Assembly (NCBI RefSeq): GCF_030684315.1
Contig: NC_081369.1
Location: 548,828 to 612,688, forward strand
DNA from: Stegostoma tigrinum
Taxonomy: Eukaryota
Length of the DNA stretch: 63,861 nucleotides
Direction of reading: 5' to 3'
Below the pieces are notes generated by a model. That model was not told the DNA's origin. It did not search any database and saw only the letters and a list, made by a program, of their open reading frames with translations. The translations under genes and the position numbers were made by a program. Positions 5,816 through 54,002 of the stretch are shown here, in pieces. Numbering within the stretch: the first letter of the stretch is position 1; each line of letters opens with the position of its first letter.

Positions 5816-5987
5816 ATACAGTCTGACCCGTTAACAGATGAAGAGCTGAATTCTATAAAACAATTTGTTGACTACAAGGGTAATGATTTGACTAAGGTGA
5901 TGTTGAGGGCGAAGAAGCCAGACTTTGAAATTGGGTCATCTGCTCGACTGAAACTGTCGTTTGTCTCGAAATCGAAAGCGGTGGATG
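5816..5987 (+). CDS. CIAPIN1: CIAPIN1 coding exon
   Basis: tcacag|...|gtaagc; IQSDPLTDEELNSIK...AKKPDFEIGSSARLKLSF (conserved KKPxFExGSS); phase 0-1. Confidence 0.95.
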
Positions 5988-6314
5988 GTAAGCATTGCTG
6001 TACTACCTGGGGACAACTTTCGCTAGAGTGTGGTTATTTGCTGTTCTGTGCTGTGGTGGAGGCAGTTAGATATAGCCTGGTCATTGATGCACATATCACT
6101 GGAATTAAATAAAAACACATTTTCTTTTTCTTGTCCGTCTAGCTGCTGACATGGACGGTCCAGCACCACTCCACCTTCCCCAGCAGGACCTGCTGCTGCA
6201 CTCAGTATCTCACCATACATTGTGCAGCACAGCAGAAAATATTACCAATGCTTTCAAAAACACAAAGAGCTCAACAGTTTTAAATGCAGACAACCACCAC
6301 CTAACACTCTCAGG

Positions 6315-6940
6315 ACTTGTACAGCATAGGGTTTGGATGTAGAGTAAAGCTGCCTTTGCACTGTACCCATCAAACACTTCCAGGGCAGAGATAGTACAGG
6401 CTTAGGTACAGAGTAAAGCTACCTTTGCTGTCTTAAACTGAAGGTAAACGAGCCAGTACACTGCCCCATCAAACACTCCAATGATCAGTACAATAGTTAG
6501 ATGCAGGATAAAATGTCCTGTACTACTTTAAACTGACAGGAAAGCTTCCAACACCTTTGGAACTGAAAATAATGCTCCTTTTACATTGTTCCTAGCAAAC
6601 GCAGGTATTGTATGGGATTAGATACCGAGTAAAGTTCCTCCTGCTGTTTTAAACTGAAAGAATAGAGCCGAGCTCCATCTTCTCTTTTAGCCTGAAAGTA
6701 AAAAGCTTTTACTTGTTTAAATTGAAAGTAAAGCTCAATCGACACTGTCCCCATCAAACATTCCCCAGACAGTATCAGCAAGGAGTTACATATTTCCTTT
6801 CTTTTATGCTTCTCTATTTTTTTAAGCTGAAAGTAAAGCTGCCTTTTACGCTATCCACCTCAAACACTCCCAGTACAGGGGCATTAGTGGTTTAGATACA
6901 GAATAAAGCTGCCTCTAGAGTGTCTTCATTAAGCACTCCA
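6315..6940 (+). repeat. Degenerate minisatellite-like repeat
   Basis: Recurring agagtaaagct...cactgtccccatcaaacactccc...ttagatac units; an inverted copy lies at ~13920-13970. Confidence 0.75.
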
Positions 6941-7301
6941 CTCTCTCACGTCTGTCTGAGATACCAAACACTCCTTCCGTGTTGCGCTGATTTACTTGTG
7001 TGTTGTTCAATCTAGATTCCCGTGTTCACAACATTCCTTCCACTACACCGGGGAGAATAATCGCAGACTGGGTGGCTGTTATCGGAGACCTCCACCCAGT
7101 CTGTGGATCACCCTGACCTTCCAGTCGCCTGTGAATGTAATTCTCCAGTTTGCTCCCACATATATGATTGTGGTCAGCTGCACAGTTCCTGGGAAGCACA
7201 ACGTCATCCCCAGGAACAACACCTGATTGCATCTCTTGAGCTCAACTTTGAGTTCAACAACTTCAGACAGTAATCTCTGCCCCACTGCAGGTTAGCTACC
7301 T

Positions 7302-7512
7302 TAGATAACAAAGTGTGGAGCTGGATGAACACAGCAGGCCAAGCAGCATCTTAGGAGCACAAAAGCTGACGTTTCAGGCCTAGACCCTTCATCAGCCCGA
7401 AACGTCAGCTTTTGTGCTCCTAAGATGCTGCTTGGCCTGCTGTGTTCATCCAGCTCCACACTTTGTTATCTCGGATTCTCCTGCATCTGCAGTTCCCATT
7501 ATCTCTGATACA
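7302..7512. mobile_element. Palindromic Penelope terminal-repeat insertion with 13-bp TSD
   Basis: Near-perfect ~75-bp inverted arms; TSD AGGTTAGCT(A/G)CCT at 7289-7301 and 7513-7525. Confidence 0.85.
7366..7395 (-). ncRNA. Minimal hammerhead ribozyme core (Penelope-associated)
   Basis: CUGAUGA-AGGGUCUAGGCCU-GAAAC-GUC on the - strand. Confidence 0.65.
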
Positions 7513-8020
7513 AGGTTAGCTGCCTGGTTGTGTTGCAGCTTTCAGTCTTAATCCTGTTTTCTCATTTTGCTGTTAGACTGTCATTCTGCCATTCACACTT
7601 CCTCTGGGTAGAAGCTTTTATTTCTTTAGTTGTTCCTTTTGCCACTCACTTGAGCTCAGTCCTATCAGCGCTTTAGTCGGCCAGTCTCTGCTATCTCCCT
7701 GCTACCTCAGAACCTCTCTTTTCCATGTTCCCTGTTTCACCAGCATTAAAGCTAAGACATCTCTAACTTAGTGTTGACGAAGGCTCCCAACCTGAAAGGT
7801 TAACTCTGTTTCTATCTTTATCGATGCTGTTAGATTTGCTGAGTATTTTCAGCATTTTACTGTATAGGGTTGGCTCTGTACTGGGTTTGTGCAGCTTGAA
7901 TGTGTAGAAGTTGGTACTGTGACTGTCTACTGCTGCTGGGTCACTGCAGTTGGCCACCAGCTGGCAATGGGTGAGCCATGACTGTGTGTTTAGGTTCATA
8001 CTGGAAATTTGATGTTACAG

Positions 8021-8094
8021 AGAAACCGCAGCTGGACCCCAACACGAAGAAAGCTTGGACCCTGTCAGCCATTGATATGAATGACGACGATGTG
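8021..8094 (+). CDS. CIAPIN1: CIAPIN1 coding exon
   Basis: ttacag|...|gtgaga; EKPQLDPNTKKAWTLSAIDMNDDDV (cf. KLWTLSANDMEDD); phase 1-0. Confidence 0.95.
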
Positions 8095-8341
8095 GTGAGA
8101 TTACCTCTTCTAAACCCCACCTGTTATCCTGTGCTTGAGCTTTTCCGGGGGAGCAGGAATGCCTGGTCCAAACTCCTATCCCTTGAGGCCAAAGTACAGG
8201 GGCCTAAAAATGGTGACGCCCCTCGCTAACCTTTATGGCAGCTATCAGTGCTGTGCCCTCCCCAGTGGCAGGCCACAGCTTGTTCTAAAGCATTCAGTTG
8301 AGCTTGTGGCAATCACCCTCCCCCTCAAGCTAGGAACAGTC

Positions 8342-8430
8342 AGGAATGCCCTGACGTCAGCACTGGCCCAGGAAAGCCCTGACGTCAGCACTCGCCCAGG
8401 AAGGCCCTGACGTCAGCACTGGCCCAGGAA
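8342..8430 (+). repeat. 28-bp tandem repeat x3, each unit with a perfect CRE palindrome
   Basis: aggaa(t/a/g)gccctgacgtcagcact(g/c)gccc; TGACGTCA at 8352, 8380, 8408. Confidence 0.9.
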
Positions 8431-9269
8431 CGCTCAATCTTCTGATTCAGAGGGAAGAGACTTCTGAGTCAATCCGAGCTCAATATCTTTCCTTAGAGAA
8501 GACGCCCAGAGCTGTCCACTGTATTCCAACTGTGATCAGATTTATGCTTTGTATAGTTTCAGCAAAACCTTCCTCCATTCCCTTTATAATAACTAGAGCT
8601 GTGTTTAAATAATTTGGAGTCTATTTGCATAGAGAGCATGGAGAAGCTGGAATTGTTCCTGGAGCAGAGGAAGTTTAATAATACTGCTTCCTGTGACCAC
8701 AGGTATTGATAGAGCAAATGAGAAGGTTGTTTGAACTGGCAGGAGGTTTGGGAACCAAATGAGAGATTTTTAGGATAAATGGCAGACAACCATGGGTGAG
8801 GGTGAGAACAGATTGAATTCCCTTTTGCAAGCTGTGATTCAATAAATAAGAAAATCTTCCATCCTATCCTGTCTGGCATACACCTGCATGGGTTTGAATC
8901 AACCAATTAGTTCTTCAGCATCAAAATGCATTGCAACAGCTCACAGCGGCTAAGAAATGCCCCTCCTACCAGTACTGCCCAAACCTTGATAAGAAAGAAA
9001 TAATCCCACAGTTACTTGCACAAAATGTGGTGTACACTAGGATCATGGCAGAGCTGCAGGGGAAGGAAGGGAGCTGTTTACCTGGGCTACCACCAGACCC
9101 AAAAAACTTGTCATGAAGAGTATCTTTCATAACCAAACAGTGAACATTTGAAGTATCAGAGGGGCTGGAAATACTGTTCTTGGTTCTAATTCATTGAGAA
9201 AGGAAGATTATACTTTGGGAGTATTGTCCACAGACTGTTACACGTACAGCTAGGAATATAGAATTGTAG

Positions 9270-10320
9270 CAATAATAGTAAAATGGACTATTATTTGAAT
9301 GGTGAAAAATTGCAGGCATGCTGCTGTTCAGAGAGACCTGAGTGTCAAAAGAACAAAGAAACTTAGAGCAGAGGAACAGCCCCTTCGGCCCTCCAAGCCT
9401 GCACTGATCCAGATCCTCTATCTAAATCTGTCACCTATTTTCCAAGGATCTGGATCCCTCTGCTCCCTGCCCATTCATGTATCTGTCTAGATACATCTTA
9501 AATGATGCTATTGTGCCTGCCCCTACCACCTCTGCTGGCAACGTGTTTGAGGCACCCACCACCCTCTGCGTAAAGAGCTTTCCATGCATTTCTCCCTTAA
9601 ACTTTTCTCCTCAAGTGTCCTCGTGCATGAATCACACAAAAGTCAGTTTGCGGGTGCAGCAAGTAATTAAGGCTGCAAATAGAGTATTGTCCTTCATTGC
9701 TAGACTGATGGAGGTTAAAAGCAGGGAGGTTATGCTGCAGCTGTGTAGTGTGCTAGTGAGGTCACACCTGGAGTACTGTGTACAGTTTTGGTCTCCTTAC
9801 TTGAGAAAGGATGAACTGGCACTGGAGGGGGTGCTGAGGTGGTTTACTAGGATGATTCCAGAATTGAGAGAGTTGGCCTATGAAGAGAGATTGAGTAGAC
9901 TGGGACTATACTCATTGAAATTTAGAAGAATAGGTGGGGTGGGGGAGTCTTATAGAAACACAAAATTTTGAAGGGAGTAGATGGGTAGAAGCAGGGAGGT
10001 TGTTTCCAACTGCGGGTGAAACTAGAACTAGGGGGCGTAGCCTCAAAATAAAGGGGTGCAGATTTCGCACTGATTTGAGGAGGAACTTCTTGACCCAAAA
10101 GGTTGCGAATCTGAAGAATTCCTTGCCCAGTGAAGCAGTTGAGGCTACCGCATTGAAAGTTTTTAAGGCAAAGATACGTTTTTGAACAGTAAAAGAATAA
10201 GGGTAACAGTGAGTAGGCAGGTAAGTAGAGTTGAGTACATGAAGAGATCAGCCCTGATCCTTATTGAATGGTGGAGCAGACTCAATGGGCCAGATGGCCT
10301 ATTCTTGCCCCTATTTCTTA
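9270..10320 (+). mobile_element. CR1 3' fragment with a nested inverted CR1 tail (~9346-9613)
   Basis: VRSHLEYCVQFWSPYLRKD ORF; nested piece flanked by agtgtc duplication. Confidence 0.85.
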
Positions 10321-10408
10321 TGTATAGGTAAACACTCTGCCTGTGGCACACATAGCCTGCACAATAGGCAGAGCCACAATTGAGCCATCTCTCCCTGCCT
10401 TTCCTTAG

Positions 10409-10527
10409 GATCTTATTGATTCTGATGAACTGCTGGATGAAGATGATTTGAAGAAACCGGATCCCGCCTCGCTGAGAGCTATGGACTGTGGAGACGGCAA
10501 GAAAAAGAAACGGGCCTGTAAGAACTG
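10409..10527 (+). CDS. CIAPIN1: CIAPIN1 coding exon, start of first Fe-S cysteine motif
   Basis: ccttag|...|gtcagt; [39 protein letters not shown](C); phase 0-2. Confidence 0.96.
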
Positions 10528-10648
10528 GTCAGTGTCTCTCACTCCATCAGGTTACAGTAAGAATTGGTCAGTGTCTCACACTGCGTCAGGTTACACTAAG
10601 AACTGCACAGTGTCTCACTTTGACCAGTTCTTCCCAGTGTAACCTGAC
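10519..10648 (+). repeat. 39-bp tandem repeat over the CIAPIN1 splice donor plus an inverted partial copy
   Basis: Units at 10519-10557, 10558-10596 and partial 10597-10618; antisense copy tgaccagttcttcccagtgtaacctgac at 10621-10648. Confidence 0.85.
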
Positions 10649-11083
10649 AATGTCACACACTCCGTCACATTTACACAAGGAAAAACAGTCAGAACTTTGC
10701 AACTTCTCAGGTTAAACTAATAAAAACGGATCCTTATCTCACAGCCCCATCGGAATGAGATCAGGGCATTTGAATGATTCTGCAGCTGTATAAAGGCATG
10801 TTGACTGTGATCATGGATGTATGTAAAGGCACGTTGCATGTAGTTACTGTAGTGTATACTGAAGACCATATTAGGCGTGGTCATAGTGTTGTATAATGTT
10901 GAGTGTGTTTCTGGAGGCATATCAGGGCATGTAGTGTGTTGTTTTCGAGGTATCTCTGTGCATGTTGACAGTGATTCTGGAGGCTTCTTAGGGCATGTTG
11001 AGTGAGGTTACTGATGTATGTTCGACATTTTAACTCTTTTGGTGAGCCTGTTTGAAATGTAGCTGACCATCCCTGTGTTTCAG

Positions 11084-11165
11084 TACATGTGGCCTGGCTG
11101 AAGAACTGGACGGGAAAGGATCCACAGATGTTAAGAAACTGCAGGTGAAATCATCGTGTGGAAGT
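11084..11165 (+). CDS. CIAPIN1: CIAPIN1 coding exon
   Basis: tttcag|...|gtaagt; (C)TCGLAEELDGKGSTDVKKLQVKSSCGS; phase 2-0. Confidence 0.96.
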
Positions 11166-11955
11166 GTAAGTATTAACATGTTGGCAGGAACCTGAACAGA
11201 GCAGCAGCCATCCTGTTAATGTGAAGAGGTTGCCTGAGATCTATTTAAAATGTTGCCAGTGCTTTTTCATCTAACACACTGTCTGAGTTTATCTGGGGAT
11301 CACTGATTCTGCCTCACAGTTGAAAGTATTCCCGAGATACTGCTTATCTATTTGGAACATGCTTGTGCTTCAGTTACCAAGGAAAAACTGCTGAAAGCCA
11401 CATTTGAACTAATAATCTTCACAGTGAGTGGGGCTATGTATTCATCAGCACAATTTTGGCAGTATAGTCACAGGCTTGTCTTTGGTTGGACTCAAAAGCT
11501 TCCTAGCGTTAAGCCCTCACTATGTCTATTTTATTGAGCTCTGCAGCCATGCTCTGTTTATATTCTGATAGTAAAAATAAGGCCCCAGGATGTGAACTGT
11601 GTGTTGACTACACGGTTTACCCCTGTATAGCTAATGAGGGAGTAGTCAACATTATTGATAATAAGACAAGTACATACAAAATAACATTGGAAGAAATATG
11701 TTCATGGAATGTGGGCATTGCTGGTTGGGCCAACATTTCTTGCCCTTCCCTAATTTCCCACAGATAAGGCTTGCTGATGTCTATTTCACATTCCCCTCTC
11801 GCTCTCGCTCCCTCATGTTCACTCTGTTGCGCTCAGGGCCTTCGTTCTCTCTCTCGTGTTCACTCTCATGCTGGCACTTTCGCACGCGCACTGTCTTGTG
11901 CACTCTCTTCCGCTGTCACACTCTTGTGTGTGCTCTCATTGTCACTCTCACTCTC

Positions 11956-12089
11956 NNNNNNNNNNNNNNNNNNNNNNNNNNNNNNNNNNNNNNNNNNNNN
12001 NNNNNNNNNNNNNNNNNNNNNNNNNNNNNNNNNNNNNNNNNNNNNNNNNNNNNNNNNNNNNNNNNNNNNNNNNNNNNNNNNNNNNNNNN
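11956..12089. other. Assembly gap (134 N) within CT-rich low-complexity intron sequence
   Basis: Run of N flanked by ctctc repeats. Confidence 0.99.
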
Positions 12090-12174
12090 CTCTCGCTCCC
12101 TCTTTCCCGTGCCCCCACTCCCAGTCAGTGTATTCCCTTGGTGCTGTTAAGTTTGTTGTTTGTCTTGCCTTTTG

Positions 12175-12445
12175 AACATAGAACATAGAACAGTACAGCA
12201 CAGAACAGGCCCTTCAGCCCACAATGTTGTGCCGACCATTGATCCTCATGTATGCACCCTCAAATTTCTGTGACCATATACATGTCCAGCAGTCTCTTAA
12301 ATGACCCCAATGACCTTGCTTCCACAACTGCTGCTGGCAACGCATTCCATGCTCTCTCAACTCTCTGCGTAAAGAACCTGCCTCTGACATCCCCTCTATA
12401 CTTTCCACCAACCAGCTTAAAACAATGACCCCTCGTGCTAGCCAT
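12175..12445 (-). mobile_element. Young CR1 3' end
   Basis: TRGHCFKL...RFFTQRV ORF, (ttctatg)n tail; similar to 34110-34400. Confidence 0.88.
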
Positions 12446-12490
12446 TTGGGTTCAAGACAACAATAACATTGCTTCCATTGTCTGTTGTAG

Positions 12491-12601
12491 TGCTACCTTG
12501 GTGATGCGTTTCGTTGTGCCAGCTGCCCTTACATGGGGATGCCTGCCTTCAAACCTGGTGAAAAGATCTTGTTAGCTGACCAGACTCTCACCGACGCCTG
12601 A
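12491..12601 (+). CDS. CIAPIN1: CIAPIN1 last coding exon, second Fe-S motif and stop
   Basis: ttgtag| [39 protein letters not shown], the diagnostic Dre2/anamorsin C-terminus. Confidence 0.97.
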
Positions 12602-20070: not shown

Positions 20071-20664
20071 GTGAGTGCAGGGATTCAGTAAAAAAAATGT
20101 GAAAAATAATTTTGTTTAACATTTCCACCACCGGGAAAAGTAGGCATGTGGCCAAGGAACCAGTAACAAGCAAAGCCTGGTAAGGACAATGCTGACGTGA
20201 CAAGCAAAGTAAAGGGGCCAGGATAGCGATTTAAATCAATGTCGAGTTGAAGGGGGAAATAAAGCACTTAACCCACACAGTGCCCACCCCTCCCTAAAGG
20301 TAATATGGACCAGGGTAACAGCCCCAATCAGGGAACTCATATTTTATGAAACTATCTGGCTGACCTCATTACAATCACTAGACAAAGGTCCTATGCTTTA
20401 CTGTTCTGTGCCCTACGTAAAGGAATGATGTTTGTGGTTCTGCTCATACCTTCCCAGAGAGCTTCCTGAAACGCACGTACACTTTGTAACACAGTTTAAC
20501 TCCTATCTAATCCACCTTCCCAATTCTCAGCCAATCAGCTGACATTGGCTTACTCCATGAGTGGGCAGTGACCAATGGAAGGTGAAGATGAAAACTGGTG
20601 GGAAATTCAACCTGGTTTCTCTTGAATGGAAAACTGAAAGCTGAACAATTACACCCTTGTCCAA

Positions 20665-21212
20665 ATTAAGCAGCTGAACTCATCTTGAACCTTAACAACT
20701 TCTCCTTCAATTCCTCCCACTTCCTCCAAACAAAGTGGGTGGCCATGGGTACCTGCATGGGCCCAAGCTATGCCTGCCTCTTTGTAGGATACATGGAACA
20801 ATTCCTTCTCCGAAGCTACACTGGCCCTATCCCCCACCTCTTCCTCTGTTATATTGATGACTGCTTCGGTGCCGCCTCGTGCTTCCATGAGGAGCTCGAG
20901 CAGTTCATCCACTTCACTAACACCTACCACCCCAACCTCAAGTTGCCCTGGACTATTTCTGATAACTCTCTCTCCTTTCTGCATCTCTCTGTTTCCATCT
21001 CTGGCAACTGCCTGGAAACCGATATCTATTTCAAGCCTACCAACTCCCACAGCTAGCTAGAATACACCTCCTCCCACTGACCTTCCTGCAAAAATGCCAT
21101 CTCCTATTCCCAATTCCTTCACCTCCGCCGCATCTGCTCCCAAGATGAGGCATTCCACTCCTGGACATCTCAGATGTCCTCGTTTTTCAAGGGCAGCAAC
21201 TTCCCCTCCACG
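20665..21212 (+). mobile_element. Penelope (Neptune-like) reverse transcriptase fragment
   Basis: NNFSFNSSHFLQTKWVAMGTCMGPSYACLF...YIDDCF...TDIYFKPTNSHS. Confidence 0.9.
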
Positions 21213-21453
21213 ATAGTCTCTCCCATTGGTCTCCAACCACATTTGTCCCTGTACCGTAAACAGCTTCACTCAGTTTGATGATTGGAGTAGACATGTGGAA
21301 AGTTAGTTAATTACCATTCACAGTCTTTCATTTTAATGAGCACAAAAACAGGATTATTGCAAATGATCAGAGAATCAGTTTGTGGATCCAATCTTCAAAC
21401 AGATTCTTCATTCTGCCTGTCTCCCAGTGTAACATCAGTCAATTCAACACTCC

Positions 21454-21626
21454 AAGATAGCAAATTGTGGAGCCGGATGAACACAGCAGGCAAAGCAGCA
21501 TCCGCTTGGCAATCTGTGTTCATCCAGCTCCACATCTCGTAAGATGCTGCTTGGCCTGCTGTGTTCATCCAGCTTCACACTTTGTTATCTCGGATTCTCC
21601 AGCATCTGCAGTTCCCATTATCTCTG
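21454..21626. mobile_element. Palindromic Penelope-derived insertion in the chemokine A 3' UTR, 13-bp TSD
   Basis: TSD A(A/G)TTCAACACTCC at 21441-21453 and 21627-21639; empty site in copy B near 51786. Confidence 0.9.
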
Positions 21627-21681
21627 AGTTCAACACTCCGCATGTTTCCAGTGGATTGAAAGGTTGTACTTTAAGTAGGTT

Positions 21682-21784
21682 CTAGCTTTCAATCCCCAAT
21701 TTCTTCTCCAGATATGCCACTGCATTTTGAACCCACTTCTCACTGGCTCTCGTACAAATTCTCATCTTCCTCCTGTTTGTGAAG
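21682..21784 (-). CDS. CC chemokine copy A, exon 3
   Basis: ctctttcag|; (I)FTNRRKMRICTRASEKWVQNAVAYLEKKLGIES-TAG, with C4 and conserved WV. Confidence 0.93.
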
Positions 21785-21886
21785 CTGAAAGAGTGAGATG
21801 AGATTATGATTATCAGAGAATCACAGGTATGAGCTCCAAACCTTTCATTTCCACAGACAGTGATAAAAACACTGTAAAACACTCAC

Positions 21887-21995
21887 ATGATAGAGGGAGT
21901 GGAGCAGCCAACCGTCCTGGTGAAGCTTACGAGCCGTTTATGAGGAATGCGAGTGGTCTTAAAGTTCTCACAGCAATCGAAAGTGACAGAGCCGG
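21887..21995 (-). CDS. CC chemokine copy A, exon 2
   Basis: cctcattgcag|...|gtgagt; AGSVTFDCCENFKTTRIPHKRLVSFTRTVGCSTPSI; adjacent CC plus C3; phase 1-2. Confidence 0.94.
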
Positions 21996-22356
21996 CTGCA
22001 ATGAGGAAGAGTAGGAATGGAGATGGTGAATCCTTCAACACATTCACAGCACATTCTCACTGACAGCCTCCTTTTCCTCCATGTTTTCATCCAGAAGCAC
22101 TTTGAGTGTACACAACACAAACAGACCATTCAGCCCACCTGTTCCCTGCCGCAGTTTCAAACCCTCCTGGCACAGAACTCACTCAACCCATCCACATATC
22201 CAGCTATTTATCTCTCCCTCATATGTATATCCAGTCTCTCTTTAAAACATCTTAATATTATTCACTTTCACCACTCCTTCCAGCCTCAGGGTACACTTTC
22301 TAATCACTCTCTAGCTAAAGCATGTTCTACTCCATTCCTAATGGGATTGATTAGGA

Positions 22357-22671
22357 GTTTTTTCCCAGAGTGGGGGACTCAATTACTAGGGGTCATGAGT
22401 TCAAAGTGAGAGGAGGAAAGTTTAAGGGAGATATGCGTGGAAAGTTCTTTACGCAGAGGGTGGTGGGTGCCTGGAATGCATTACTGGCGGAGATGGTAGA
22501 CGCAGACACATTAGCGTCTTTTAAGATATATATGGACAGGTACATGAATGGGCGGGGAGCAAATGGACACAGACCCTTAGAAAATACATGACAGGTTAGG
22601 CAGAGGATCTCAAACGGCACAGGCTTGGAGGGCCGAAGGGCCTGTTCCTGTGCTGTAATTTTCTTTGTTCT
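22357..22671 (+). mobile_element. CR1 3' end insertion specific to copy A intron 1
   Basis: TRGHEFK...KFFTQRVV ORF; TSD TTGATTAGGA at 22347-22356 and 22672-22681; absent near 52510. Confidence 0.88.
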
Positions 22672-22829
22672 TTGATTAGGAATTGTCCTCAGTTCTGCTC
22701 TCTATCACAAGTGGAAACATCATTCCCACACCCACTCTATCAAACCCCTTGGACATATCCAAAACTGCCATCAGGCCTCTTTTCAGACTTCTGACTACTT
22801 GTGGAAAGTCTTGCAGCCATTTCCACACT

Positions 22830-23615
22830 ACAAACGTAAGATGTAGCATTTTGGTAAAGGAAGTCAGGCCAGGACACACAGTTAATAGTAAGTTCCTAGG
22901 GACTGTTATCGGACAAAGAGAACTTGGGTTGCAGTTTTATAGTTCCTTGAAAGTGGAGTTGCAGGCGGACAGGGTGGTGAAGAAGGCTTTTGGTAGACTT
23001 GCTTTTATTGGTCATTGTATTGAGTACAGGAGTTGGTAGGTTATGTTGTGGCTTACAGGACATTGGTTAAGCCAGTTTTGAAATACTGCATGCAATTCTG
23101 GTCTCCCTACTCTTAGAAAGACGTTGTTATTGTAAGGGATCAGAAAGATTTGCAAGGATGTTGCCAGTATTAGAGGCTTTGAGCGACAGGGAGAGGCTGA
23201 ATAGGCTAGGGGTATTTTCCCTGGAATGTCAGAGGCTGAGGGGTTACCTGGCAGAAGTTTAAAAACGAATAAGAGCATGGACAGAGTGATTATTCAAGTT
23301 CTTTTGCTCAAGATAGGCAAGCCCAAAACTGGAGGGCATAGGTTTAAAGTGAAAGGGTAAAGATTTAAAAGGGAAACCAATGGGCAATATTTTCACCTGG
23401 CAGGTGGTGTGTATGTGAAATGGGCTGTAAGAAGAGGTAGTGGAGGCTAGTATAATTACAATATTTAAGTTACATCTGAATAGGTATATGAATGGGAAGT
23501 GTTTAGAGGGACATGGGCCAAATGCTGACAAATGGGACAAGATTAATTTACAATATCTGGTTGGCGTGGACAATATGGACCAAAGTGTCTGTTTCCATAC
23601 TGTATGACTGTATAA
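22830..23615 (+). mobile_element. Older CR1 3' fragment in chemokine intron 1 (counterpart ~52675-53500)
   Basis: QRELG...DRVVKKAFG...EYRSW ORF. Confidence 0.8.
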
Positions 23616-23934
23616 CTAGACATTGAATATTGACAGGGATTGGAAAGACAGAGCAGGACAGATTAACCATCATTCTAGTAAAAACCTAGTACCAGCTTAA
23701 TGGGCTGAGTAGTCTCACATGCTCTCTCTCGCTCTCTGTCTCTCTGTTTTGATGTGATTTTATTTGGCATCATTGGCCCACAGTTTCTGAATGGAGTGAG
23801 GAGGGATCATTACATTAACCCTAATAAGTAACACAAACAGGCAAGGGAAAGCAGCAGGGGCACTGGAACCTGTTCCTGTTTTCCTCATTCTCAAGTTCTG
23901 AGCAAAGATTGGGAAGAAGGAAGGCTTCTCTTAC

Positions 23935-24019
23935 CTGGTGCAGCAGAAACACCATCTTGGATCGAGCAGGTTGCCAGTGCTCCCAGCACAACAGTAGCTA
24001 CACACAGTGCTGTCCTCAT
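23935..24019 (-). CDS. CC chemokine copy A, exon 1 (signal peptide); 98-aa precursor
   Basis: gccaggATG; MRTALCVATVVLGALATCSIQDGVSAAP-g|gtaaga; 85+109+103 nt gives an open 98-aa frame. Confidence 0.93.
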
Positions 24020-24094
24020 CCTGGCCTGGCCCAACTTGCAAGTGTTCAGTGTTGCAGGGCGAGTGTGGATGACGAGGGAGCTGTCACCTCCTGG

Positions 24095-24237
24095 TTTATA
24101 TCCTGGAGAGACTGTACCGAGTCAGCAATTCAGACCCTCCCTGAAACTTTCCCCATGCCCCAGCAATGACACTGTGCCTGGAATTGTTCCTCCATGGCTG
24201 TTCTCCCTGAAATGGGAAGTTCATGTTGTTCTCTGAA
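24095..24237 (-). promoter_or_regulatory. Chemokine A proximal promoter: TATA box with kB-like and GAS-like motifs
   Basis: TATAAA (- strand) 24095-24100; GAAACTTTCCCC 24143-24154; GGGAAGTTCA 24214-24223; TTCTCTGAA 24229-24237; all retained in copy B. Confidence 0.65.
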
Positions 24238-24574
24238 TGTGATTTTTGGAGACAGGAGCATGAGCAGCTGGAACTTCTGAGGTCAGTGTTTCTCAGCAAA
24301 TTGTCATCTCGATTCCCTCAGCCTGGCCCCAACTTCCCTCTCCAGGCTAGAGAGAGGCAATGGGAGCACTCGAGCTTCCTGAGTGACCCATTGCTCACTG
24401 AGTCTGCTGTCAGAGAGGCAGCTCAGAGCAGGAAGTGAGATTAACATCAAAATATCTCACTGCAGGAGAAAAAGGTTGCGTTTCCATAGCGCCCTTCCCC
24501 AACTCAGGAACTCTCAAAATATAAAATTGTCTGTCGGGTCTTTCTCAGCCATCGTCACTGTCAATATTGTAGGA

Positions 24575-24772
24575 CAAGAGAATTTATGTGACACCAGGTT
24601 ATAGTCCAACAGGTTTATTTAAAATCACAAGCTTTTGTAGCGCTGCTCCTTTATTAAGTGAAGGAGCACCTTCAGGATTTCACCTGACAATTTTGCAGTG
24701 CAAATCAACCTGTTGGGCGATTAGCTGGTGACTTCTGACCTTATCCACCCTAGTCCAACACCGGTCCCTCCA
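24575..24772. mobile_element. Penelope (Poseidon-like) terminal-repeat insertion with perfect 13-bp TSD
   Basis: caccaggttatagtccaacagg motif; TSD CAATATTGTAGGA at 24562-24574 and 24773-24785; absent in copy B near 54477. Confidence 0.8.
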
Positions 24773-24801
24773 CAATATTGTAGGAGGGACAGCAGAAACT
24801 G

Positions 24802-25120
24802 TGGCACGGTGGCTCAGTGGGTAGCACTGTGGCCTCACAGCACCAGGGACCCAGGTTCGATTCCAGCCTCAGGTGACTGTCGGTGTGGAGTTTGCACATT
24901 ATCCCCGTGTCTGCGTGGGTTTCCTCCGGGTGCTCCGGTTTCCTCCCACAGTCCAAAGATGTGCAGGCTAGATGGGTTGGCCGTGCTAAATTGCCTGTAG
25001 TGTTCAGGGGTGTGTGGGTTATGGGGGGGTGGGTCTCAGTGGGATGCTTCAAAGGGCGGTGTGGACTTGTTGGGCTGAAGGCCCTGTTTCCACACTGTAG
25101 CAAATCTAATCTAATCTAAT
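24802..25120 (+). mobile_element. HE1-like SINE specific to copy A
   Basis: Full head and core with (aatct)n tail; absent near 54505. Confidence 0.92.
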
Positions 25121-26349
25121 CCCACAAACTACAGTGTAATAGTCACCTAACAATCAACCATTGACAGTTGCTTTTATGAGTCAAGGCATAGAGTATAAAA
25201 GCAGGCATCTAATGCTGGAGCTGTACAGGACTTTGGTTTGGCCACAGCTGGAGTACTGTGTGTAGTTCAGGTCCCTGCACACTATTGGAATTATATGATA
25301 GCACTGAAGGGGATTGCAGGTCTGGGATGCAGTGCATGAGCTAGGAAGAGAGGTTGGATTAACTCGCGTTGTTTTCTTTGCAGAAGAGAAGGCTGGGGGA
25401 GGGGGACCTGATCTCGGTGTCTCAGAGTCAGAGGGGTATGGACAGGAGGATAGAAAGCTGCTGTTTCCCTTTATTCAAGTGTCATTACAAAGGGTCATCA
25501 TTTTCAAATGAGTGGAAGGAGGTTTAGAGAGAATTGGAGGAAACATTTCTCGCCCAGAGGGCAGTGGCAGGTCATTGAGACAGGAAGCCTCACAATCTTT
25601 AAAAAGTAGTTGCTGAGCACTTATAATGTCATAGCATTCAAGGCAATGGGCTTAATGTGGGAAAGTAGGACTAATGCAGGTGGTTGTGTATTTTTGGCAG
25701 TGCAGTACTGATGGGCTGAATGGCTTCTTCTGTACTGTATGATGCTCTGAATCAGTTTTAATGATGTGCATTAAGGGATATTGCCTAGGATATCAGGGAG
25801 AGCTGTCTTTCTCTCCTTCGTCATCAACCCAAGGGCTGTTTTCCATCCAGTCGAGAGGACAGATGAGACTCGCTGGGCTATCATTTATTGTCCATCCATA
25901 ACGGCCCCTGATGAAGGTGGCAGTGAGCTGCCTTCTTGAATCTACAATGCAATTAAGGAGGGAATTCCAAGATTTTGACCCAGAAACAGTGAAGGAACAT
26001 TGATATGTTTCCAAGTCAGGATGGTGGGTGGATTGGAGGGCACCTTGCAGGTCATGGTGTTCCCATGTACCTGCTGCCCTTGTCCTTCCAGATGGAGTTG
26101 ATTGCAGTTTTGGAAGGTGCTGTCTAAGGTGCTTGGGTGAATTTGTACAGTGTATCTTGTAGGTAGCACACAATGCTGCTACTGAGCATTGGGGAGAGAA
26201 GGCGTGGATGTATATGAATGTGGTGCCTGAAATAACTCCACACAGGCCAGTACCCTGTCGACATGTCACCCTTTAATTACACATGACCCATCCTTGACTT
26301 TAGTACTGCCTCTTCAGAATCAGCTGTCAGAATCTCTGACATTTTTCTT

Positions 26350-27943
26350 TTTTGGAGGATGTGTTTGCTGCCAGAAAGCACATTAATGTGGAGAAAACTC
26401 CTGGGCCTGATCAAGTCCATCTACAGAAGTTGTGGTAGGACAGGAAAGAAATTGCAGAGGCCCTTGCAGAGACTTTTGCTTCATCCTTTGCCACTGGTGA
26501 AGTTCTGGAAGACTTGAGGGTGGCTAATATTGTTCTACTGCTCAAGAAAGGTAGCAAAGAGAAGCCCGGGAACTACAGGCCAGTGAGCCTGACATCAGTG
26601 GTAGGCAAGTTATTGGAGAGGATACTGAGGGACAGGATCGACCATCATTTGGATAGTCAAGGTCTGATTAGGGATAGTCAGCATGGAGTTGTGCACAGGA
26701 AGTCATGTTGACAAATCTTCAAAACATTTTTGAAGAGGTAACCAAGTAACCAAGAGGATGGATGGGTGTGGGACTGTGGATGTTTTCTATATGGACTTTA
26801 GTAAGGCCCTTGATAGGGTCCCACATAGAAGGCAAGTCATGAAAGTTAGGTCACATTTGATCCAGAGAAAGCTAGCTATTTGGATTCAAAATTGGCTCAA
26901 TTGGAGGAAGCTGAGGGTGATGGTTGAAGGTTGATTCTCAGAGTGGAGGCCTGTGACTAGTGGTATGCCACAGAGGTCAATGCTGGGACCTTTGTTATTT
27001 GTTATTTACATAAATGATCTGGATGTGAATGTACAAGGCATGAGTAGTAAGTTTGTGAATGATACAAAATTAGGAGGTATCATTGATGATGAAGAAGGTT
27101 ATAAATAATTACAGAGGGGATTTGTTCAGATGAGGAAGTGGGCTGAGGATTGGCAAATGCAATTCAATATAGATACGTGTGGGCTGTTGCATTTTGGAAA
27201 GTCAAACCAGTAGGACTTATACAGTAAATGGTAAGGTCCTGAGGAGTGTTATGGAACAGATCTAGCAGTTCAAGTACATTGTTCATTGAAGTAGTGTCAC
27301 AGGTGGACAGAGTGGGAAAGAAGGCATTTAGCATGCTGACTTCCATCAGTCGAGGCATTAAGTATGGGAGCAGTGATGTTATGCTATAGTTGTCATAAGG
27401 AGTTGGTGAGACTACACTTGGAGTATTGTTTTGGTCACCCTGTTATAGGAAAGACATAGTTAAATTGGAAAGTAAGCAAAGAAGATTTACAAGGATGGTG
27501 CCAGGACTAAATTATAGGGAGAAGTTGGCCAGGATAGAACGTTATTCCTTGGAACATAGGAGATTGAGGGGTAGCCTTATTGAGGTGTTTAAAATCGTGA
27601 GGGGCATAGATAGGATGAATGCATATAGCCTTTTTTCCCAGGGATTGGAAATTGAAAACTGGATGGTATAGTTTAAGGTGAGAAGGGATAGATTTAAGAA
27701 GGACCTGAGGGGTAACAGAGAGTGGTGCATATATGGAATGGGCTGCCAAGGAAAGTAGTTGAGGCCTGTTCAATAGCAACATTTAAAAAGCATTTGGATA
27801 GGTTCCTGGATGGGAAGGGTTTAGAGGGATATGGACTAAATGTGGACAATTGGAACTAACTGAACGGGCACAATAGTCAGCCTGGAGCAGTTTGACCCAA
27901 AGGGCCTGTTTCCATGATGTATTAATCTATAACTCTATGACTC
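26350..27943 (+). mobile_element. CR1 RT plus 3' end, inserted into a solo LTR in copy A only
   Basis: PGNYRPVSLTSVVGKLLE, SQHG, FWSPCYRKD; the uninterrupted LTR is at 55628-55852. Confidence 0.88.
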
Positions 27944-30900
27944 TGTCAGCCAGGGCTCAGTGATTGGACCAGATTCACAGCCCCAGTCAGGGACCTCATA
28001 TTCTATGATGTGCACCTGGCTGATATCGTTGCAATTACTACAGTGTCAAACAAACCGACTGCTTTATCCTGAATGGTGTCAAGCTTCTTGTGTGTTGATG
28101 CAGCTGCACCCATCCAGGTAAGTGGGGAATATTCCATTGTACACTGATCTGTGGCTTGTAGATGATGAACAGGCTTCTGGGAATCAGGAACAAAATTCCC
28201 TCGAAGTTGCGTTGGTTCTGTGTGCAGCCACTCGAAGACCCTGTGCACCGTGATCAGCATCGGAACACTGATCATGGCATTGAGTGTCAGTTCTGGAAGT
28301 CACCGCCACACACCGGCCTCAGGGGGCCATTTGGCTGGAAAGAAGGTAGGAGAGATAGCTATTCAGGGGGTGAGTTACTCGCTGTAGTATTCGAAGCATC
28401 TGATCTGTTCTTGTAACCATTGTATTTACATGGCAAGTTCAGTTTCTAGTCAATGATAACCGCTAGGATGTTGACAAATGATATTCAATGATGATAACAC
28501 TGTTGAATGTCAAAGGGCATTAGTTACATTGTCTCCTAACGATGATGGTCATTGCCTGGTATTTGTGTGGCATGGAAGTCACTTGCTATTTGTCAGCCCT
28601 AGCCTGGATATTATCCAGATTTTGTTGCATTTGAAAATGGACGGTATCAATATATGAGGATTCATGATGGTGCTGAACATTGTAATCATCAGCAAATATC
28701 CCCATTTCTAACCTTTTGGAGGATGGAAGGTCACTGATGAAGCAGCTGAAGATGGTTGGGCCTCACACATTAACCTGAGGAACTCCTGCAGAGATGCCCT
28801 GGAGCTGAGATGACTGACCTCCAACAACAACAACAATCCTCCTGTGTGACAGGTATGACTCTAAACAGCGGAGAGTTTGACCCTTATACCCATTGATTCC
28901 AGCAATGCTAGGGACTCCTTGATGCCATGTTCAGTCAAATGTAGCCTTGATGTCAAGGACTATGATTCACACTTCACCTGTGAAATTCAGCTCTTTTATC
29001 CATGTTTGGATGGAGATTGCAATGACGTTAGTAGCACAGTGACCTTCACAGAGCCCAAACGGTCAGAGATACAAGATATAGTTTATTCCACTGTCATAAC
29101 TACATACAGTTAATATTGTACTGATGGGAATGTACTGTCTAATAATTTGTGTGAGGAGGTTCAGATTAGCTCTGATTAACCCTCCCTTGTCCATGTCCTT
29201 AGACAACAGATTATTTTACAATCGCATGCCCCACCAGCAGTCATGTAGTGACTGAACCTGATACTATGAACTCCCCCAGCTCGACAGTGGAAAAGGCCTG
29301 AACTTATTCCATTTCAGGGGAAAATCGAACTGAGTGTTGGATGTAATTATTCCCAATGTGGGCAGGTTAGCAATCTTCATTCCAGCAGCAGATTCTTTTG
29401 TATGATAACTTTGAAAGTCAAATGTGTTATTCCTGATTCTTCATTTTGGTTTATGGTTTTCACCATGTGACTAGTACACCACACCATTCAGTGGGTGAAG
29501 GAAAGAGGACAATGGAAACTCTGATTCCAGAAATCAGGACTCAGTAATAGCCTTAATGAACAAGGGAAAGGCATTGCTGAACGGTGGTCTGTTATCCACA
29601 ATCTTAATAAAATCTAAAAGCCCAGACCCATCACTGTAACAAATGCAGTAGAAGTCTGGCCATGGCTTAATTCATGACTGAATAAAGCTCCACAAATAGA
29701 GTGAAAGAAGTAAGTAATCAAAATGTGAGAACCACAGAGATTGAGCACAATCCACTCCACTTCCCCATAGCTGGGTTCGGGGGTGGGGGGGGGGGGAGGT
29801 GGTTGGTGGTGCGGTGAGGGTACGAACTAACAAACAGAAGATATGATTGGAGACCCATTGGAATCATTGTGGTCATATATTGTTACGCCAAGAGGTGAGA
29901 TTTTCAGGAGAATTGGGAGAGTTCGCATAGAGTACACATAGTTAGTAATTCACATGAACAGCTACATCAAATTCCCCAACCAGTGTCAATAGAATTCAAC
30001 ATCTGAGAGTGACCCATTGCCCTAGACCATCAGCATTACATGCAAGTTCAGGGAGAGAGGAGAGAAACCCCCAGACAGACTCAACCAGTGAAAAGAAGAC
30101 ATTGAGGGGAGACTGTGGAAATGTGGTTATTCAATCACTTTGGGAGTTACAAATAAATCAATGATGTAACTAATAATTTAATGATGTTCTAGGCTGTGCC
30201 AATAGGGAACCAGAGAAGTGTCTGCAAGAGGGAGTGAGTGAGAAACAGCAATTTGTACAAACTTTCCTCCTGCGTGCGGTGAGAGGAAGCATCAATCCTT
30301 AACTCCATTTTACTTCTGGAGTTACTGCAAACTAGATTTACCAATTGGATTAACACTTAAGGAGACTGGGACACACCAAGCCCCAGACTGAGAGTGGGAC
30401 AGACCATGGGGGAGTCTGTTTTTCTCTAGCCACCCACATACCATGCGATGGGTGTAGGGGCAGAGATTCCATGGTTCAGAGGATGTAAGGTTGAAGAAGA
30501 GTGGGGCTTAGGGAGTTCAGGGACAACCAAAGAAGACAGTCCACTCCCTGAGAGTTTCACTTTCCAAATGTCAAATCGCAGAGGGAATAACTTTTAGGTG
30601 AGAGGGGAAAAGGCGAAGGGAGATGTGGGAGGGAGATGTTTTCCACAGAGAGTGATAGGTGCTTGGAGGTGGTGGAAGCAGATAAGATGGCAACATTTAA
30701 GCAGCATTTAGACTGACATATGACAGGCAGAAAATAGCAGTTCAGATGGGATTAGTTTAGAATAGCATCATGGTCAGCACAGGCGTAGTGGACTGAGGGG
30801 CTTGGTTCTATGTTGCACTGTTTTATATTTTATGTTCTATGTGTCCACCATATCAGTCAGTGAGGGAGACCTGGGGTCAATGAGAGGGTAATGGCTGGAA

Positions 30901-31483
30901 ATATTGAATCACAGGAGCGTGTCCTCGAGCTGAACATATCCATGGAGACAGCAGAGTGCAGGGGCAGGAGACCTGGCCTGTGATATGCCAGCCACTGACC
31001 TGAGGCCAGTTTATACAGCACACCATCTCTTTGAGAGAGCCTGGACCCACTGCTCACAGCCAGCTGCTTCAACCCCTTGAAGCCTGTTTGTGTGTTTGAG
31101 CTGTTCAGAGGCACAGAGAGTGAGAGTTCCTGTGATTTCAGAGCTAATGGAGATCCCCCTAAAATCTATATTTAATGGTTGTCTCACTCATTGAGTCACA
31201 GACACAGCCCTTTGGAGAAACAGTCCCAGAGAAATACAGCAATGAACCAGAAAGAGGAAATCTGAATCAGACTCTCAGAATCCTCAAAGTCCCTTCCCAA
31301 CAGCTCAGTCTGTGCCATTGCACCCCAGAGACTGCTGAGGTTCACAAAGGAATTCACCACCAACATCTCCAACAAGGGATAATTTAACTATCGCCTCTTG
31401 CTGTTTATCACCATCACTGAATGCCTCACATTTAGCATTCTGGGGTTAGCATGGACCAGAAATTCAATTAGACTCACAAGAGT

Positions 31484-31695
31484 AACAGACTCCCCCATGG
31501 TCTGTCCCACTCTCAGTCTGGGGCTTGGTGTGTCTCAGCCTTCTGTAGTGTTAATCCAATTGGTAAATCTCGCTTGCAGTAACTCCAGAAGTAAAATGGA
31601 GTTAAGGATTGATCCTTCCTCTCACCGCACGCAGGAGGAAAGTTTGTACAAATTGCTGTTTCTCACTCACTCCCTCTCGCAGACACTTTTCTGGT
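31484..31695 (-). repeat. Inverted local duplication of 30209-30420
   Basis: 212-bp near-identical reverse complement; absent at the copy B site near 60865. Confidence 0.9.
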
Positions 31696-32840
31696 CAGAG
31701 GCCAGGAAAACTGTCATGAGTAATTCATTGATATAAGAAGGCATAGAGCTGGATGAACACAGCAAACCAAGCAGCATCAGAGGAGCAGGAAGGTTGACGT
31801 TTTGGGCTTAGACCTTCCTTCAGTAATTCACTTCCTGACTCACCAATGCTTTTCCATTATTTACAAGGCAGAATTAGGGAATGTGATGGAATACTTGCCA
31901 CTTGCCAAAATAAGTGCAGTTTCAATAACATTCAGAATTTTGACACCATCCTGGACAGTGGTTAATTGGCACCACGCCCACAATTAGTCCCTAATCAATC
32001 TCTTTCAGTTCAGCAACAACACTGGGATCAACCCTGCAATGTGCTCAGTTTGGGTTCCGCCAGGGCGCTCAGCTCCTGACCACAGCTTTGGACAAAACAG
32101 CTGAATTCCAGAGGTAAGGTGAGTGACAGCATTTGACATCAAGGATGCATTTGGCTGAGTGTGGCATCAAGGAGCCCCTCGCAAAACTGGAATCAATGAG
32201 AATCAGGGACAAACTCTCCAGTGGTTGCACTCATACATGGCACATAGGAAAGTGTTTGTTGTTGTTGGAGGTTAGTCATATCAACTGTAGGGTATCACAG
32301 CAGTTCCTCCAGGTAGTATCTTAGGCCCAACCGCCTGAACCAATTCTTCACCTGCTTCATTAATGACCTTGCCTCCATCATAATGTCAGAAGTCAGCACG
32401 TTTGCTGATGATTACACAATGTTCAGTGTCATTCACAACTCCTTAGGTACTGAGGCTGTCCATGTTCAAATGTAGCAAGATCTGGACAATATACAAGTGG
32501 CAAGTGACATTCATGCCATGCAGTGCTCAACAATGGCCACCTTCAACAGGACAGAATCTAACCGTCGCCCTTCAGTATTCATTACCATCACTGATTGCCC
32601 CATTATCAATGATCATAAACTCAACTGAGCTCACCACAGAAATGCAGCGGCTACAACAGCAGCCCAGAGCTGGGAATACTGCGGTGAGTAACTCACCTCC
32701 TGGCTCCCCAAAGCCTGCCCATCGTTTACAAGGCACAAGTCAGGAATGTAATGGAATACTCCCCACTTACCTGGTTTGTTGCAGCTCCAACAACACACAA
32801 GAAGCTTGACACCATCCAGAACAAAGCAGTCCACTTGATG

Positions 32841-46140: not shown

Positions 46141-46171
46141 GTAGGAAGGAAACCATATGCTGATTACCAAA

Positions 46172-49859: not shown

Positions 49860-50117
49860 AACAACAAGTCCACACCGCCCCTTGGAGCATCCCACCCAGA
49901 CCCATCCCACTATAACCCACACACCCCTGAACACTACAGGCAATTTAGCATGGCCGGTACACCTCGCCTACACATCTTTGGACTGTGGGAGGAAACCCAC
50001 GCAGACACGGGGAGAATGTGCAAACTACGCACAGACAATTACCTGAGGCTGGAATCAAGCCCGGGTCCCTGGCGCTGTGAGGCTGCAGTGCTAGCCACTG
50101 AGCCACCATGCCGCCCG
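49860..50117 (-). mobile_element. HE1-like SINE
   Basis: Reverse complement of consensus; same internal deletion subtype as 45600. Confidence 0.88.
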
Positions 50118-50951: not shown

Positions 50952-50957
50952 TTTATT
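50952..50957 (-). terminator. Candidate poly(A) signal of chemokine B
   Basis: First AATAAA (- strand) I found after the stop, about 790 nt downstream. Confidence 0.4.
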
Positions 50958-51739
50958 TCATTGTGACAGTTTCAATGGATGAAAGCCAGGAGCTGGGAAT
51001 TCGGTGAGGCAATAAGGGAGCGGAAAGGGAAAAATCACAACCACTCCCAGATTTCCAATGGAATTAGAATGGGCTCTTGAGACAGTCTGACAGAGACCAC
51101 ATCCACAAAGACTGACCACCCCCAAATCCAGACACAAACCCACACATCACCCTCAGAGACCACCAAGGCCCCACCCACAAAGGCCAACCTACCCCAGCCC
51201 CAGAGACTGACCCTCATGAACATACCCAGAGTATACTCACATCAACACCCTAAGTGTCTGGCCTACCCCCACCCCCAAGCATCTGATCCAACTCTCAAGC
51301 CCACAGACTGACCGACACACCCCAGCCTCAGAGATGGAACCCCACCCCACTGTGATCCCTCACAAACCTCATTTGAGAGAGTTGGAGTTGAAATTGTGCA
51401 AACTACACCTTGCCCAGTGTGGTTGAAGGGGATGGCCAAACAAACCACAGCAAGGGCACAGACTGACTGTCTCTGCTGAGCTCCAGCCTCTGGGATGATC
51501 CTGGGATTAGCTGGACATTTGCTGGAATGTTGTCCTACACCAGACTGACTGTTCCCTCAGTCTCTCCCATTGGCATCCAACCACATTTCCCTCTGTACCA
51601 TGAACAGCTGTCACTCAGCTTGATGATTGGAGTAGACATGGGGAAAATTAGTTTGTTACAGTCTACAATCTTTCAGTTTAGTGAGCACAGAAATAGGAAT
51701 ATCGCAAGTGATCAGAGAAGCAGTTTGTGGATCCAATCT

Positions 51740-51944
51740 TCAAGCAGATTCTCCATTCTGCCTGTCTCCCAGTGTAACATCAGTCAGTTCAACACTCTGC
51801 ATGTTTCCTGTGGATTGAAAGGTTGTACTTTCAGTGGGTTCTTCTCTTTCAATCCCCAATTTCTTCTCCAGATATGCCACTGCATTTTGAACCCACTTCT
51901 CACTGGCTCTTGTACAAATTCTCATCTTCCTCCTGTTTGTGAAG
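51740..51944 (-). CDS. CC chemokine copy B, exon 3 with acidic Ser/Thr-rich C-terminal extension
   Basis: Same acceptor as copy A; FTNRRKMRICTRASEKWVQNAVAYLEKKLGIE then REEPTESTTFQSTGNMQSVELTDVTLGDRQNGESA-TGA. Confidence 0.92.
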
Positions 51945-52046
51945 CTGAAAGAGTGAGATGAGATTATTATTATCAGCAAATCACAGGTACAAGCTCCAAA
52001 CCTTTCATTTCCACAGACGATGATAAAAACACCTTGAAACACTCAC

Positions 52047-52155
52047 ATGATGGAGGGAGTGGAGCAGCCAACTGTCCTGGTGAAGCTTACGAGCCGTTTA
52101 TGAGGAATGCGAGTGGTCTTAAAGTTCTCACAGCAATCGATAGTCACAGAGCTGG
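52047..52155 (-). CDS. CC chemokine copy B, exon 2
   Basis: cattgcag|...|gtgagt; ASSVTIDCCENFKTTRIPHKRLVSFTRTVGCSTPSI; 109 nt. Confidence 0.94.
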
Positions 52156-53614: not shown

Positions 53615-53645
<31 letters not shown>

Positions 53646-53842
53646 GTTGTGTTTCTATTTGGAATCATTGGCCTACAGTTTCTGAATGGAGTGAGGAGCA
53701 ATCTTTACATTAACGCTAAGTAACACAACATTAAGTTACACAAACAGGCGAGGGCAACCAGCAGGGGCACTGGAACCTGTTCCTGTTTTCCTCACTCTCA
53801 AGTTCTGAGCAAAGATTGGGAAGAAGGAAGCCTCTCTCTTAC

Positions 53843-53927
53843 CTGGTGCAGCAGCAACACCATCCTGGATCGAGCAGATTGCCAGTGCTCCCAGCACAAC
53901 AGTAGCTACACACAGTGCTGTCCTCAT
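53843..53927 (-). CDS. CC chemokine copy B, exon 1 (signal peptide); 132-aa precursor
   Basis: MRTALCVATVVLGALAICSIQDGVAAAP-g|gtaaga; 85+109+205 nt open frame. Confidence 0.93.
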
Positions 53928-54002
53928 CCTGGCTTGGCCCAACTTACAAGTGTTCGGTGTTGAAGGGAGAGTGTGGATGAGGAGGGAGCTGTCACCTCCT
54001 GG

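Follow-up and report, generated by a model that had tools for sequence, protein, structure and literature searches.

An acidic C-terminal tail on one of two near-isogenic shark CC chemokines, most simply read as a lineage-specific gain by read-through followed by losses

One of two CC chemokine paralogues in a 63,861-nucleotide stretch of Stegostoma tigrinum DNA (contig NC_081369.1, positions 548,828 to 612,688; hereafter the window) ends in a 35-residue acidic, Ser/Thr-rich tail. The feature is real and its kind is known: a lineage-specific chemokine tail born by read-through. On the simplest reading of the proteins compared below, the long tail would be a gain of the carpet-shark lineage that was followed by losses. 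We consider it probable that the tail arose by such a read-through, was lost repeatedly and is tolerated or weakly selected.

Copy B lies on the minus strand and has two GT-AG introns and a third exon running in whole from 51944 to 51740 (Table 1); its spliced product is identical to the 132-residue RefSeq Stegostoma tigrinum model XP_059507521.1 (P0015). Copy A, whose introns are also GT-AG, yields the 98 residues of a second RefSeq model for the species, XP_048402197.1 (P0017). Both are CC chemokines, with the three exons, phase 1 and 2 introns and exon 1 leader of the CC chemokine layout. C36-C37, C59 and C75 are invariant in 18 of 18 aligned sequences, the copy B product scores 44.6 bits against Pfam PF00048 (IL8; cut-off 21.3), and its sequence matches in the PDB are chemokines. 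The ESM Atlas returned generic IL8 clusters only.

Table 1. Features of the two chemokine genes and their surroundings (positions in the window)
Feature	Position	Strand	Remarks
CIAPIN1 (anamorsin)	5816..12600	+	exons 5816-5986, 10409-10517, ~11085, ~12491-12590 (end approximate); convergent with the chemokines
Duplicated block around copy A	20539..31995	.	matches 50789-61087 at an offset of ~28-30 kb; self-comparison
Copy A exon 1	23935..24019	-	spliced gene reconstruction
Copy A exon 2	21887..21995	-	spliced gene reconstruction
Copy A exon 3, coding	21682..21784	-	ends at TAG 21684-21682, created at a 1-nt deletion
Copy A dead tail, now UTR	21395..21681	-	TAA 21673-21671 in tail frame; insert; homologue of the copy B TGA at 21397-21395
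Repeat insert in copy A dead tail	21454..21626	.	173 bp, internal inverted repeat, 13-nt target-site duplication
Copy B exon 1	53843..53927	-	start codon, hydrophobic leader, phase-1 donor; joined to exon 2 in contigs of runs X1 and X2
Copy B exon 2	52047..52155	-	CC motif C36-C37, C59; Pfam IL8 on product
Copy B exon 3, core part	51851..51944	-	BBxB-type basic loop R70-K71-M72-R73, C75, C-terminal helix to I96
Codon 97 (GAA, Glu) of copy B	51848..51850	-	aligned stop site of most outgroup proteins and short hemiscylliid copies
Copy B tail and TGA stop	51740..51847	-	35-aa acidic Ser/Thr-rich; TGA at 51742-51740
Out-of-frame TGA in copy B tail	51831..51833	-	one base shifted; stop of the 6-aa C-terminal end of catshark orthologues
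Inferred copy B 3′ UTR	50952..51739	-	to the sole AATAAA in 51740-50600; contigs pass from tail into UTR

The preliminary description of this DNA had placed the tail on an otherwise identical core and had counted 10 Ser/Thr and 7 Asp/Glu in it. These counts are reproduced from the spliced product, where the tail (R98 to A132, nucleotides 51847 to 51743) also contains 2 Lys/Arg and 1 Pro. The cores, by contrast, differ at four positions between A and B (I17T, A25S, S30G and I34F), and full identity is limited to the stretch D35 to E97. Since S30G and I34F lie shortly before the CC motif, A and B may differ in receptor activation whatever the tail, and for this activity the variation at residues 30 and 34 is possibly weightier than the tail. 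The two residues (S/G and I/F) are encoded at the start of exon 2 (52141-52155 and 21981-21995), and position 34 is I, V or F in the other copies. Pfam found no match to the tail alone. In an AlphaFold2 model of copy B the tail has a pLDDT of 33-54 and the core, with its C-terminal helix, 67-79; at an overall pTM of 0.49 the model is too weak to judge packing of the tail onto the core.

The early stop of copy A through a 1-nt indel, the TAA in its tail frame and an inserted repeat, also part of that description, are all present in the DNA. Relative to B, a 1-nt gap and two substitutions at codons 98-99 produce the TAG. The target-site duplication of the insert has one mismatch. A further copy of the repeat, at 7417-7507 in the window, matches the insert at 96.7% over 91 nt, suggesting that the insert is fairly young. 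It is built from a common shark repeat end present twice in inverted orientation, which we take to resemble a Penelope-type end (a candidate label), and it has many relatives in the window, e.g. at 7303-7507, 32964-33107 and 47256-47316. A second repeat insertion, at 20650-21214, interrupts the copy A 3′ UTR, with matches to B on either side of it (21215-21452 and 20539-20649).

To place the tail among relatives, 17 orectolobiform proteins were collected by cluster look-ups (5 Stegostoma, 3 Chiloscyllium plagiosum, 3 C. punctatum and 6 Hemiscyllium); all are predicted models, and the comparison with relatives and with the three remaining Stegostoma copies was made at protein level. Four have the full tail in the B frame, three an 11-aa stub of it, one a 21-aa end in a shifted frame, and nine stop after 0-2 aa. 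The B frame is thus found in bamboo sharks and, as the stub, in epaulette shark proteins. Residue 98 is also the last one in the three remaining Stegostoma proteins, making the early stop common to four of the five copies. One of the five Stegostoma copies and one of the three in C. punctatum are thus long, beside short ones; C. plagiosum and Hemiscyllium each have two end types, and the six Hemiscyllium proteins include 11-aa stubs, cut at codon 108, and no full tail. A third C-terminal type is seen in P0001 (C. plagiosum), where the same tail DNA, one base shifted, encodes the neutral 21-aa end. As the spacing of B is common to two families, the deletion in A is derived, i.e. A lost its tail.

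Among 23 outgroup proteins from nine species (Carcharodon, Cetorhinus, Heterodontus, Heptranchias, Narcine, Scyliorhinus, Mustelus, Pristiophorus and Hemitrygon; eight further Scyliorhinus/Mustelus cluster members are left out of the count), none has a tail of more than 7 aa past position 96. The long tail is therefore most simply explained as gained by read-through in carpet sharks; an older tail that was truncated repeatedly would be less parsimonious, judged against outgroup proteins rather than outgroup DNA. The stop falls exactly at position 97 in Heterodontus, Lamniformes, Mustelus and Pristiophorus, and outgroup stops are spread over positions 97, 100, 101, 103 and 104. The catshark end corresponds to the DNA at the start of the B tail read one base shifted, stop included (distance 3 vs. 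a null mean of 10.5, P 1.5e-4; 5 ends × 5 shifts tried). For the ends of Heptranchias, Narcine and Hemitrygon, the same test favoured no frame of this DNA. An origin of the orectolobiform end by a 7-nt insertion was dropped, since in-frame alignment sets outgroup stops exactly at 97. The matches included no family protein from whale shark, nurse shark, skate or chimaera. Polarising with other elasmobranchs, the course first suggested, thus finds the frame in bamboo and epaulette sharks and a long tail in 0 of 23 outgroup proteins. Loss by A and gain by B had been offered as alternatives; both hold, at different depths: A lost a tail ancestral to Stegostoma and the hemiscylliids, and that tail is itself most simply a read-through gain.

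The two genes also record the history of the array. Within the duplicated block, flanks are 73-90% identical and exons 95-99%. The DNA distance between A and B is 1.0% in the core part of exon 3, 3.5-4.6% in exons 1-2, 8.4% in the tail, 9.8% in intron 2, 14% in the 3′ UTR and 12-23% in distal intron 1 and the far upstream blocks, i.e. it grows with distance from the exons. Set beside the dS of 0.061-0.111 between zebra and whale sharks given in the available part of PMC13100897, the duplication looks old and the exons young. A tree built on the sequence up to residue 95 clusters copies by lineage, and long and short copies within one species can be identical. Gene conversion would fit this alikeness of exons in the array, with purifying selection probably contributing. 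A near-identical multi-copy family occurs in most sharks examined (6 Heterodontus, 4 Cetorhinus and 4 Heptranchias sequences), which suggests array homogenisation.

We propose that, in a tandem CC chemokine array beside CIAPIN1, gene conversion would keep exons alike and 3′ ends would drift. In the ancestor of Stegostoma and Hemiscylliidae, one copy lineage would have lost its stop at or just after codon 97 and read into some 35 codons of former 3′ UTR. Comparison of the copies shows that the frame was inherited by B and the bamboo-shark copies and was cut back more than once, at codon 99 in A and three other Stegostoma copies and at codon 108 in Hemiscyllium, the dead tail of A later gathering its TAA and insert. 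De novo C-terminal extensions by stop loss likewise co-opt non-coding 3′ sequence into a C-terminus; in the part of PMC4494051 available these are young yeast and fly polymorphisms, whereas the shark extension is common to two families and sits in a converted tandem array. The B product would be a secreted, soluble chemokine with a disordered acidic tail partly screening the basic GAG-binding loop (computed net charge +9 for the core, +3 for mature B and +8 for mature A, with cleavage assumed 9 residues before the CC motif), and B would be somewhat more diffusible as a result, as in the case of CCL16. Such an effect would be tolerated or weakly selected, and not tightly conserved.

Human CCL16 likewise is soluble and combines the BBxB loop of a CC chemokine with a flexible extension at its C-terminus; its truncated form binds heparin more tightly, and an auto-inhibitory tail has been proposed (PMC9687583, available text). 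The shark tail differs in being net acidic and in having short-ended paralogues instead of proteolytic removal. By analogy with CCL16, it probably weakens GAG binding, and two forms of one ligand with different GAG binding, as the preliminary description envisaged, are physically plausible. In murine CCL2 (JE), too, a lineage-restricted Ser/Thr-rich tail is carried by an ordinary CC chemokine, and mice also have the short CCL12; there the tail is of about 50 aa, and its glycosylation and its removal by plasmin, which gives a more potent form, have been shown (PMC6923224, available text). The tail of the rodent CCL2 protein P0149 is 46% Ser/Thr and 2% Asp/Glu, compared with 29% and 20% in the shark. 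By our own rule, 27 of 137 distant chemokine matches carry a C-terminal extension of at least 20 aa. These distant matches also include fish proteins with 4-5 tandem chemokine domains (P0034-P0036; P0034 from Ameiurus melas), which are either real or fused models.

The extent to which the tail is constrained was estimated in several ways. From B to the three full bamboo-shark tails (C. punctatum, C. plagiosum), the minimum nonsynonymous distance is 0.093-0.119 in the tail and 0.026-0.033 in the core, i.e. the tail changes about 3-4 times faster; the corresponding amino-acid counts (4/68 in the core vs. 6/34 in the tail, P 0.08) are not significant alone. The bamboo-shark tail ends at another stop, in a different frame of the B UTR, and has 5 acidic residues from position 97 vs. 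8 in B, the remainder lost or never gained. The Ser/Thr count of full tails stays at 10-11. At codon 114, B reads CAG and A reads CGG, and bamboo sharks have Trp, the pattern of CpG decay with both products present. In simulations, a neutral 35-codon frame was still open with a probability of 0.19-0.60 over the divergences used, making an open frame alone unremarkable. With an assumed indel rate, 6.3-8.9 changes are expected at a neutral divergence of 0.10-0.15, compared to 6-7 observed, and the frame is open in 28-42% of runs. If the neutral Stegostoma-hemiscylliid divergence were 0.2, 6 or fewer changes would have a P of 0.03, i.e. real constraint.

A and B differ at 9/107 tail and 25/179 UTR positions, which is not significant (P 0.19) and is confounded by conversion. 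When polarised, the B branch has 1 nonsynonymous change and the A branch at least 2 plus the indel and insert, a slight hint of constraint on B. Between B and the contigs of runs X1 and X2 (organism A, a relative; presumed RNA) there are at most 22/233 (9.4%) differences in the tail and at most 81/806 (10.0%) in the UTR; only core differences among those listed were subtracted here, the UTR figure is from records 1, 9 and 11, record 10 with its 17 gap letters was dropped, and paralogues, including short ones, may be mixed. Three of the differences listed change the tail protein: T110S, present in some of the contigs, Q114R and V121I. On balance the tail is under weak or no constraint, with real uncertainty. 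An unconstrained frame in relatives had been named beforehand as the mark of neutral read-through, and faster change, a shifted end and repeated truncation are largely what we see.

The composition of the tail points the other way. Joint richness in Ser/Thr and Asp/Glu as in B is reached by 1e-4 of 26,706 overlapping window frames and 8e-4 of shuffles (stop-free; residue classes chosen post hoc). On a composition score trained on 27 unrelated chemokine tails, B is in the top 0.46% of random frames, a tail-likeness exceeding what random UTR should give and thus an argument against a neutral reading. It is possible, if rather doubtful, that the read-through tail was subsequently co-opted, giving a long, GAG-shielded and perhaps O-glycosylated or protease-cleavable form beside short, matrix-bound forms, with conversion keeping the receptor-binding cores alike. 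The coexistence of end types in all four carpet sharks compared, the steady Ser/Thr count, the three changes listed for organism A and the CCL16 and CCL2 precedents agree with this, but the bamboo-shark tails rank at 8-17% among random frames, the point at which the tail ends is not conserved, the Hemiscyllium proteins retain only stubs, and the frame can survive by chance as simulated above. Mucin-type features are likewise mixed: Ser/Thr are 10/35 and pLDDT is low, but one proline in 35 is, as a rule of thumb, low for a mucin segment.

The surroundings of the array bear on a second alternative. CIAPIN1 was identified by Pfam (Anamorsin_N, 6e-8); its later exons in the window are presumed ones, placed by motifs of the protein, and a 134-N assembly gap (11956-12089) lies inside its region. 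Human CCL17, like the shark pair, is oriented tail-to-tail with CIAPIN1. In mammals the gene order is CCL22-CX3CL1-CCL17-CIAPIN1 (PMC3568907 supplement; PMC13255800 table), and the CIAPIN1 exons within the window bear out the proposal of a CX3CL1-syntenic locus. As far as the available text of the 2012 survey goes (PMC3568907), CCR4G is listed for the elephant shark and CCL22, CX3CL1 and CCL17 are not, and CX3CL1G and CX3CR1G are confined to amniotes, with no elephant shark or teleost entries; the authors describe the elephant shark genome as fragmented. An array at this position, together with an elephant shark CCR4 lacking these ligands, makes the family a candidate CCR4 ligand group of cartilaginous fish. 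It resembles CCL17 and CCL22 in being CC chemokines that adjoin CIAPIN1 in mammals (PMC3568907, available text), but sequence does not single these two out: in the PDB search CCL17 reached 7e-6 compared with 1.6e-9 for CCL14, and was among the weakest of the best 60 matches listed. Position is the sole basis for orthology with CCL17/CCL22.

CX3CL1 has a stalk and a membrane anchor. The shark gene shares with it the CIAPIN1 neighbourhood and Ser/Thr-rich sequence after the chemokine domain (PMC5104965, available text), but has adjacent cysteines in place of CX3C spacing, a tail of only 35 aa and neither membrane segment nor cytoplasmic part. In principle the tail could be old coding sequence, perhaps what is left of a CX3CL1-like mucin stalk, that survived in carpet sharks alone and was shortened independently in all other sharks and rays; the locus, the varied positions of outgroup ends, the chemokine-tail-like composition and the independent losses seen within Orectolobiformes are all compatible with this. 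We nevertheless judge it quite unlikely, since several independent truncations across nine species would be required. None of the 4 GT sites in the tail is a GTRAG donor, none of the 8 stop-free hydrophobic 19-mers in 34500-51740 is joined in frame to the tail among the joints listed, and contigs run on into the UTR; the mucin-stalk origin first suggested thus lacks the CX3C motif, the in-frame membrane segment and the consensus donor. A 50%-cluster HMMER search over all lengths found no longer high-scoring relative (near-length protein searches reached 237 aa), and the absence of CX3CL1G and CX3CR1G from the elephant shark and teleost entries above, given the fragmented genome, points in the same direction.

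Transcript-like contigs cover the tail. In organism A, contigs of X1 and X2 join exons 1 and 2 of the copy B region across intron 1, and those of X2 also cross intron 2; some contigs span the tail region free of gaps and others continue through the UTR. An exon 2 contig of organism A is identical to B over 106 nt (region 52152-52155), closer than any hemiscylliid protein allows, so that organism A is likely a further carpet-shark lineage. In run X3 (organism B, 0.89 of words), record 17 covers 51570-51948 with 2 differences and no gap, where an A-type molecule would give 35; contig 24 of run X4 shows 0 differences and no gap to the B tail or UTR. Record 17 matches from its second letter, four bases beyond the acceptor, as a spliced exon 2-3 junction would. 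These five letters, at low depth, are a hint and not proof that B is transcribed and spliced with its tail. X3 is without cover over unique intron bins that X4 covers, which we did not count as evidence. That the tail stems from an error of assembly or annotation, or that B is silent, is hardly credible: all long proteins are predicted RefSeq models, but the same frame is predicted in three other species, the X3 and X4 contigs match as described, and both introns are joined in contigs of a relative.

A literature search, with most subscription journals and bioRxiv supplements outside it, found no description of this shark chemokine family or its tail, and the available parts of PMC12228884, PMC8811506, PMC5343877 and the zebra-shark preprint 10.1101/2022.10.17.512540 contain nothing specific on either. 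A bolder conjecture, which we regard as unlikely, would be that an auto-inhibitory acidic tail originated de novo in carpet sharks out of 3′ UTR sequence and that long and short forms have persisted together since before the split of Stegostoma and Hemiscylliidae, conversion holding the cores; the result would be a soluble and matrix-bound pair, perhaps the missing CCR4 ligand of cartilaginous fish. Lineage-specific C-terminal tails are common on chemokines; the present case adds a dated history of birth and loss in which the long and the short paralogue are near-isogenic. As a by-product, the analysis points to an array of shark chemokines at the CCL22/CX3CL1/CCL17 position. If the tail is neutral, it would be an unremarkable case of drift at the terminus of an immune gene that evolves fast; A and B nonetheless form a ready pair with which to probe the effect of a young acidic tail on GAG binding and gradient shape.
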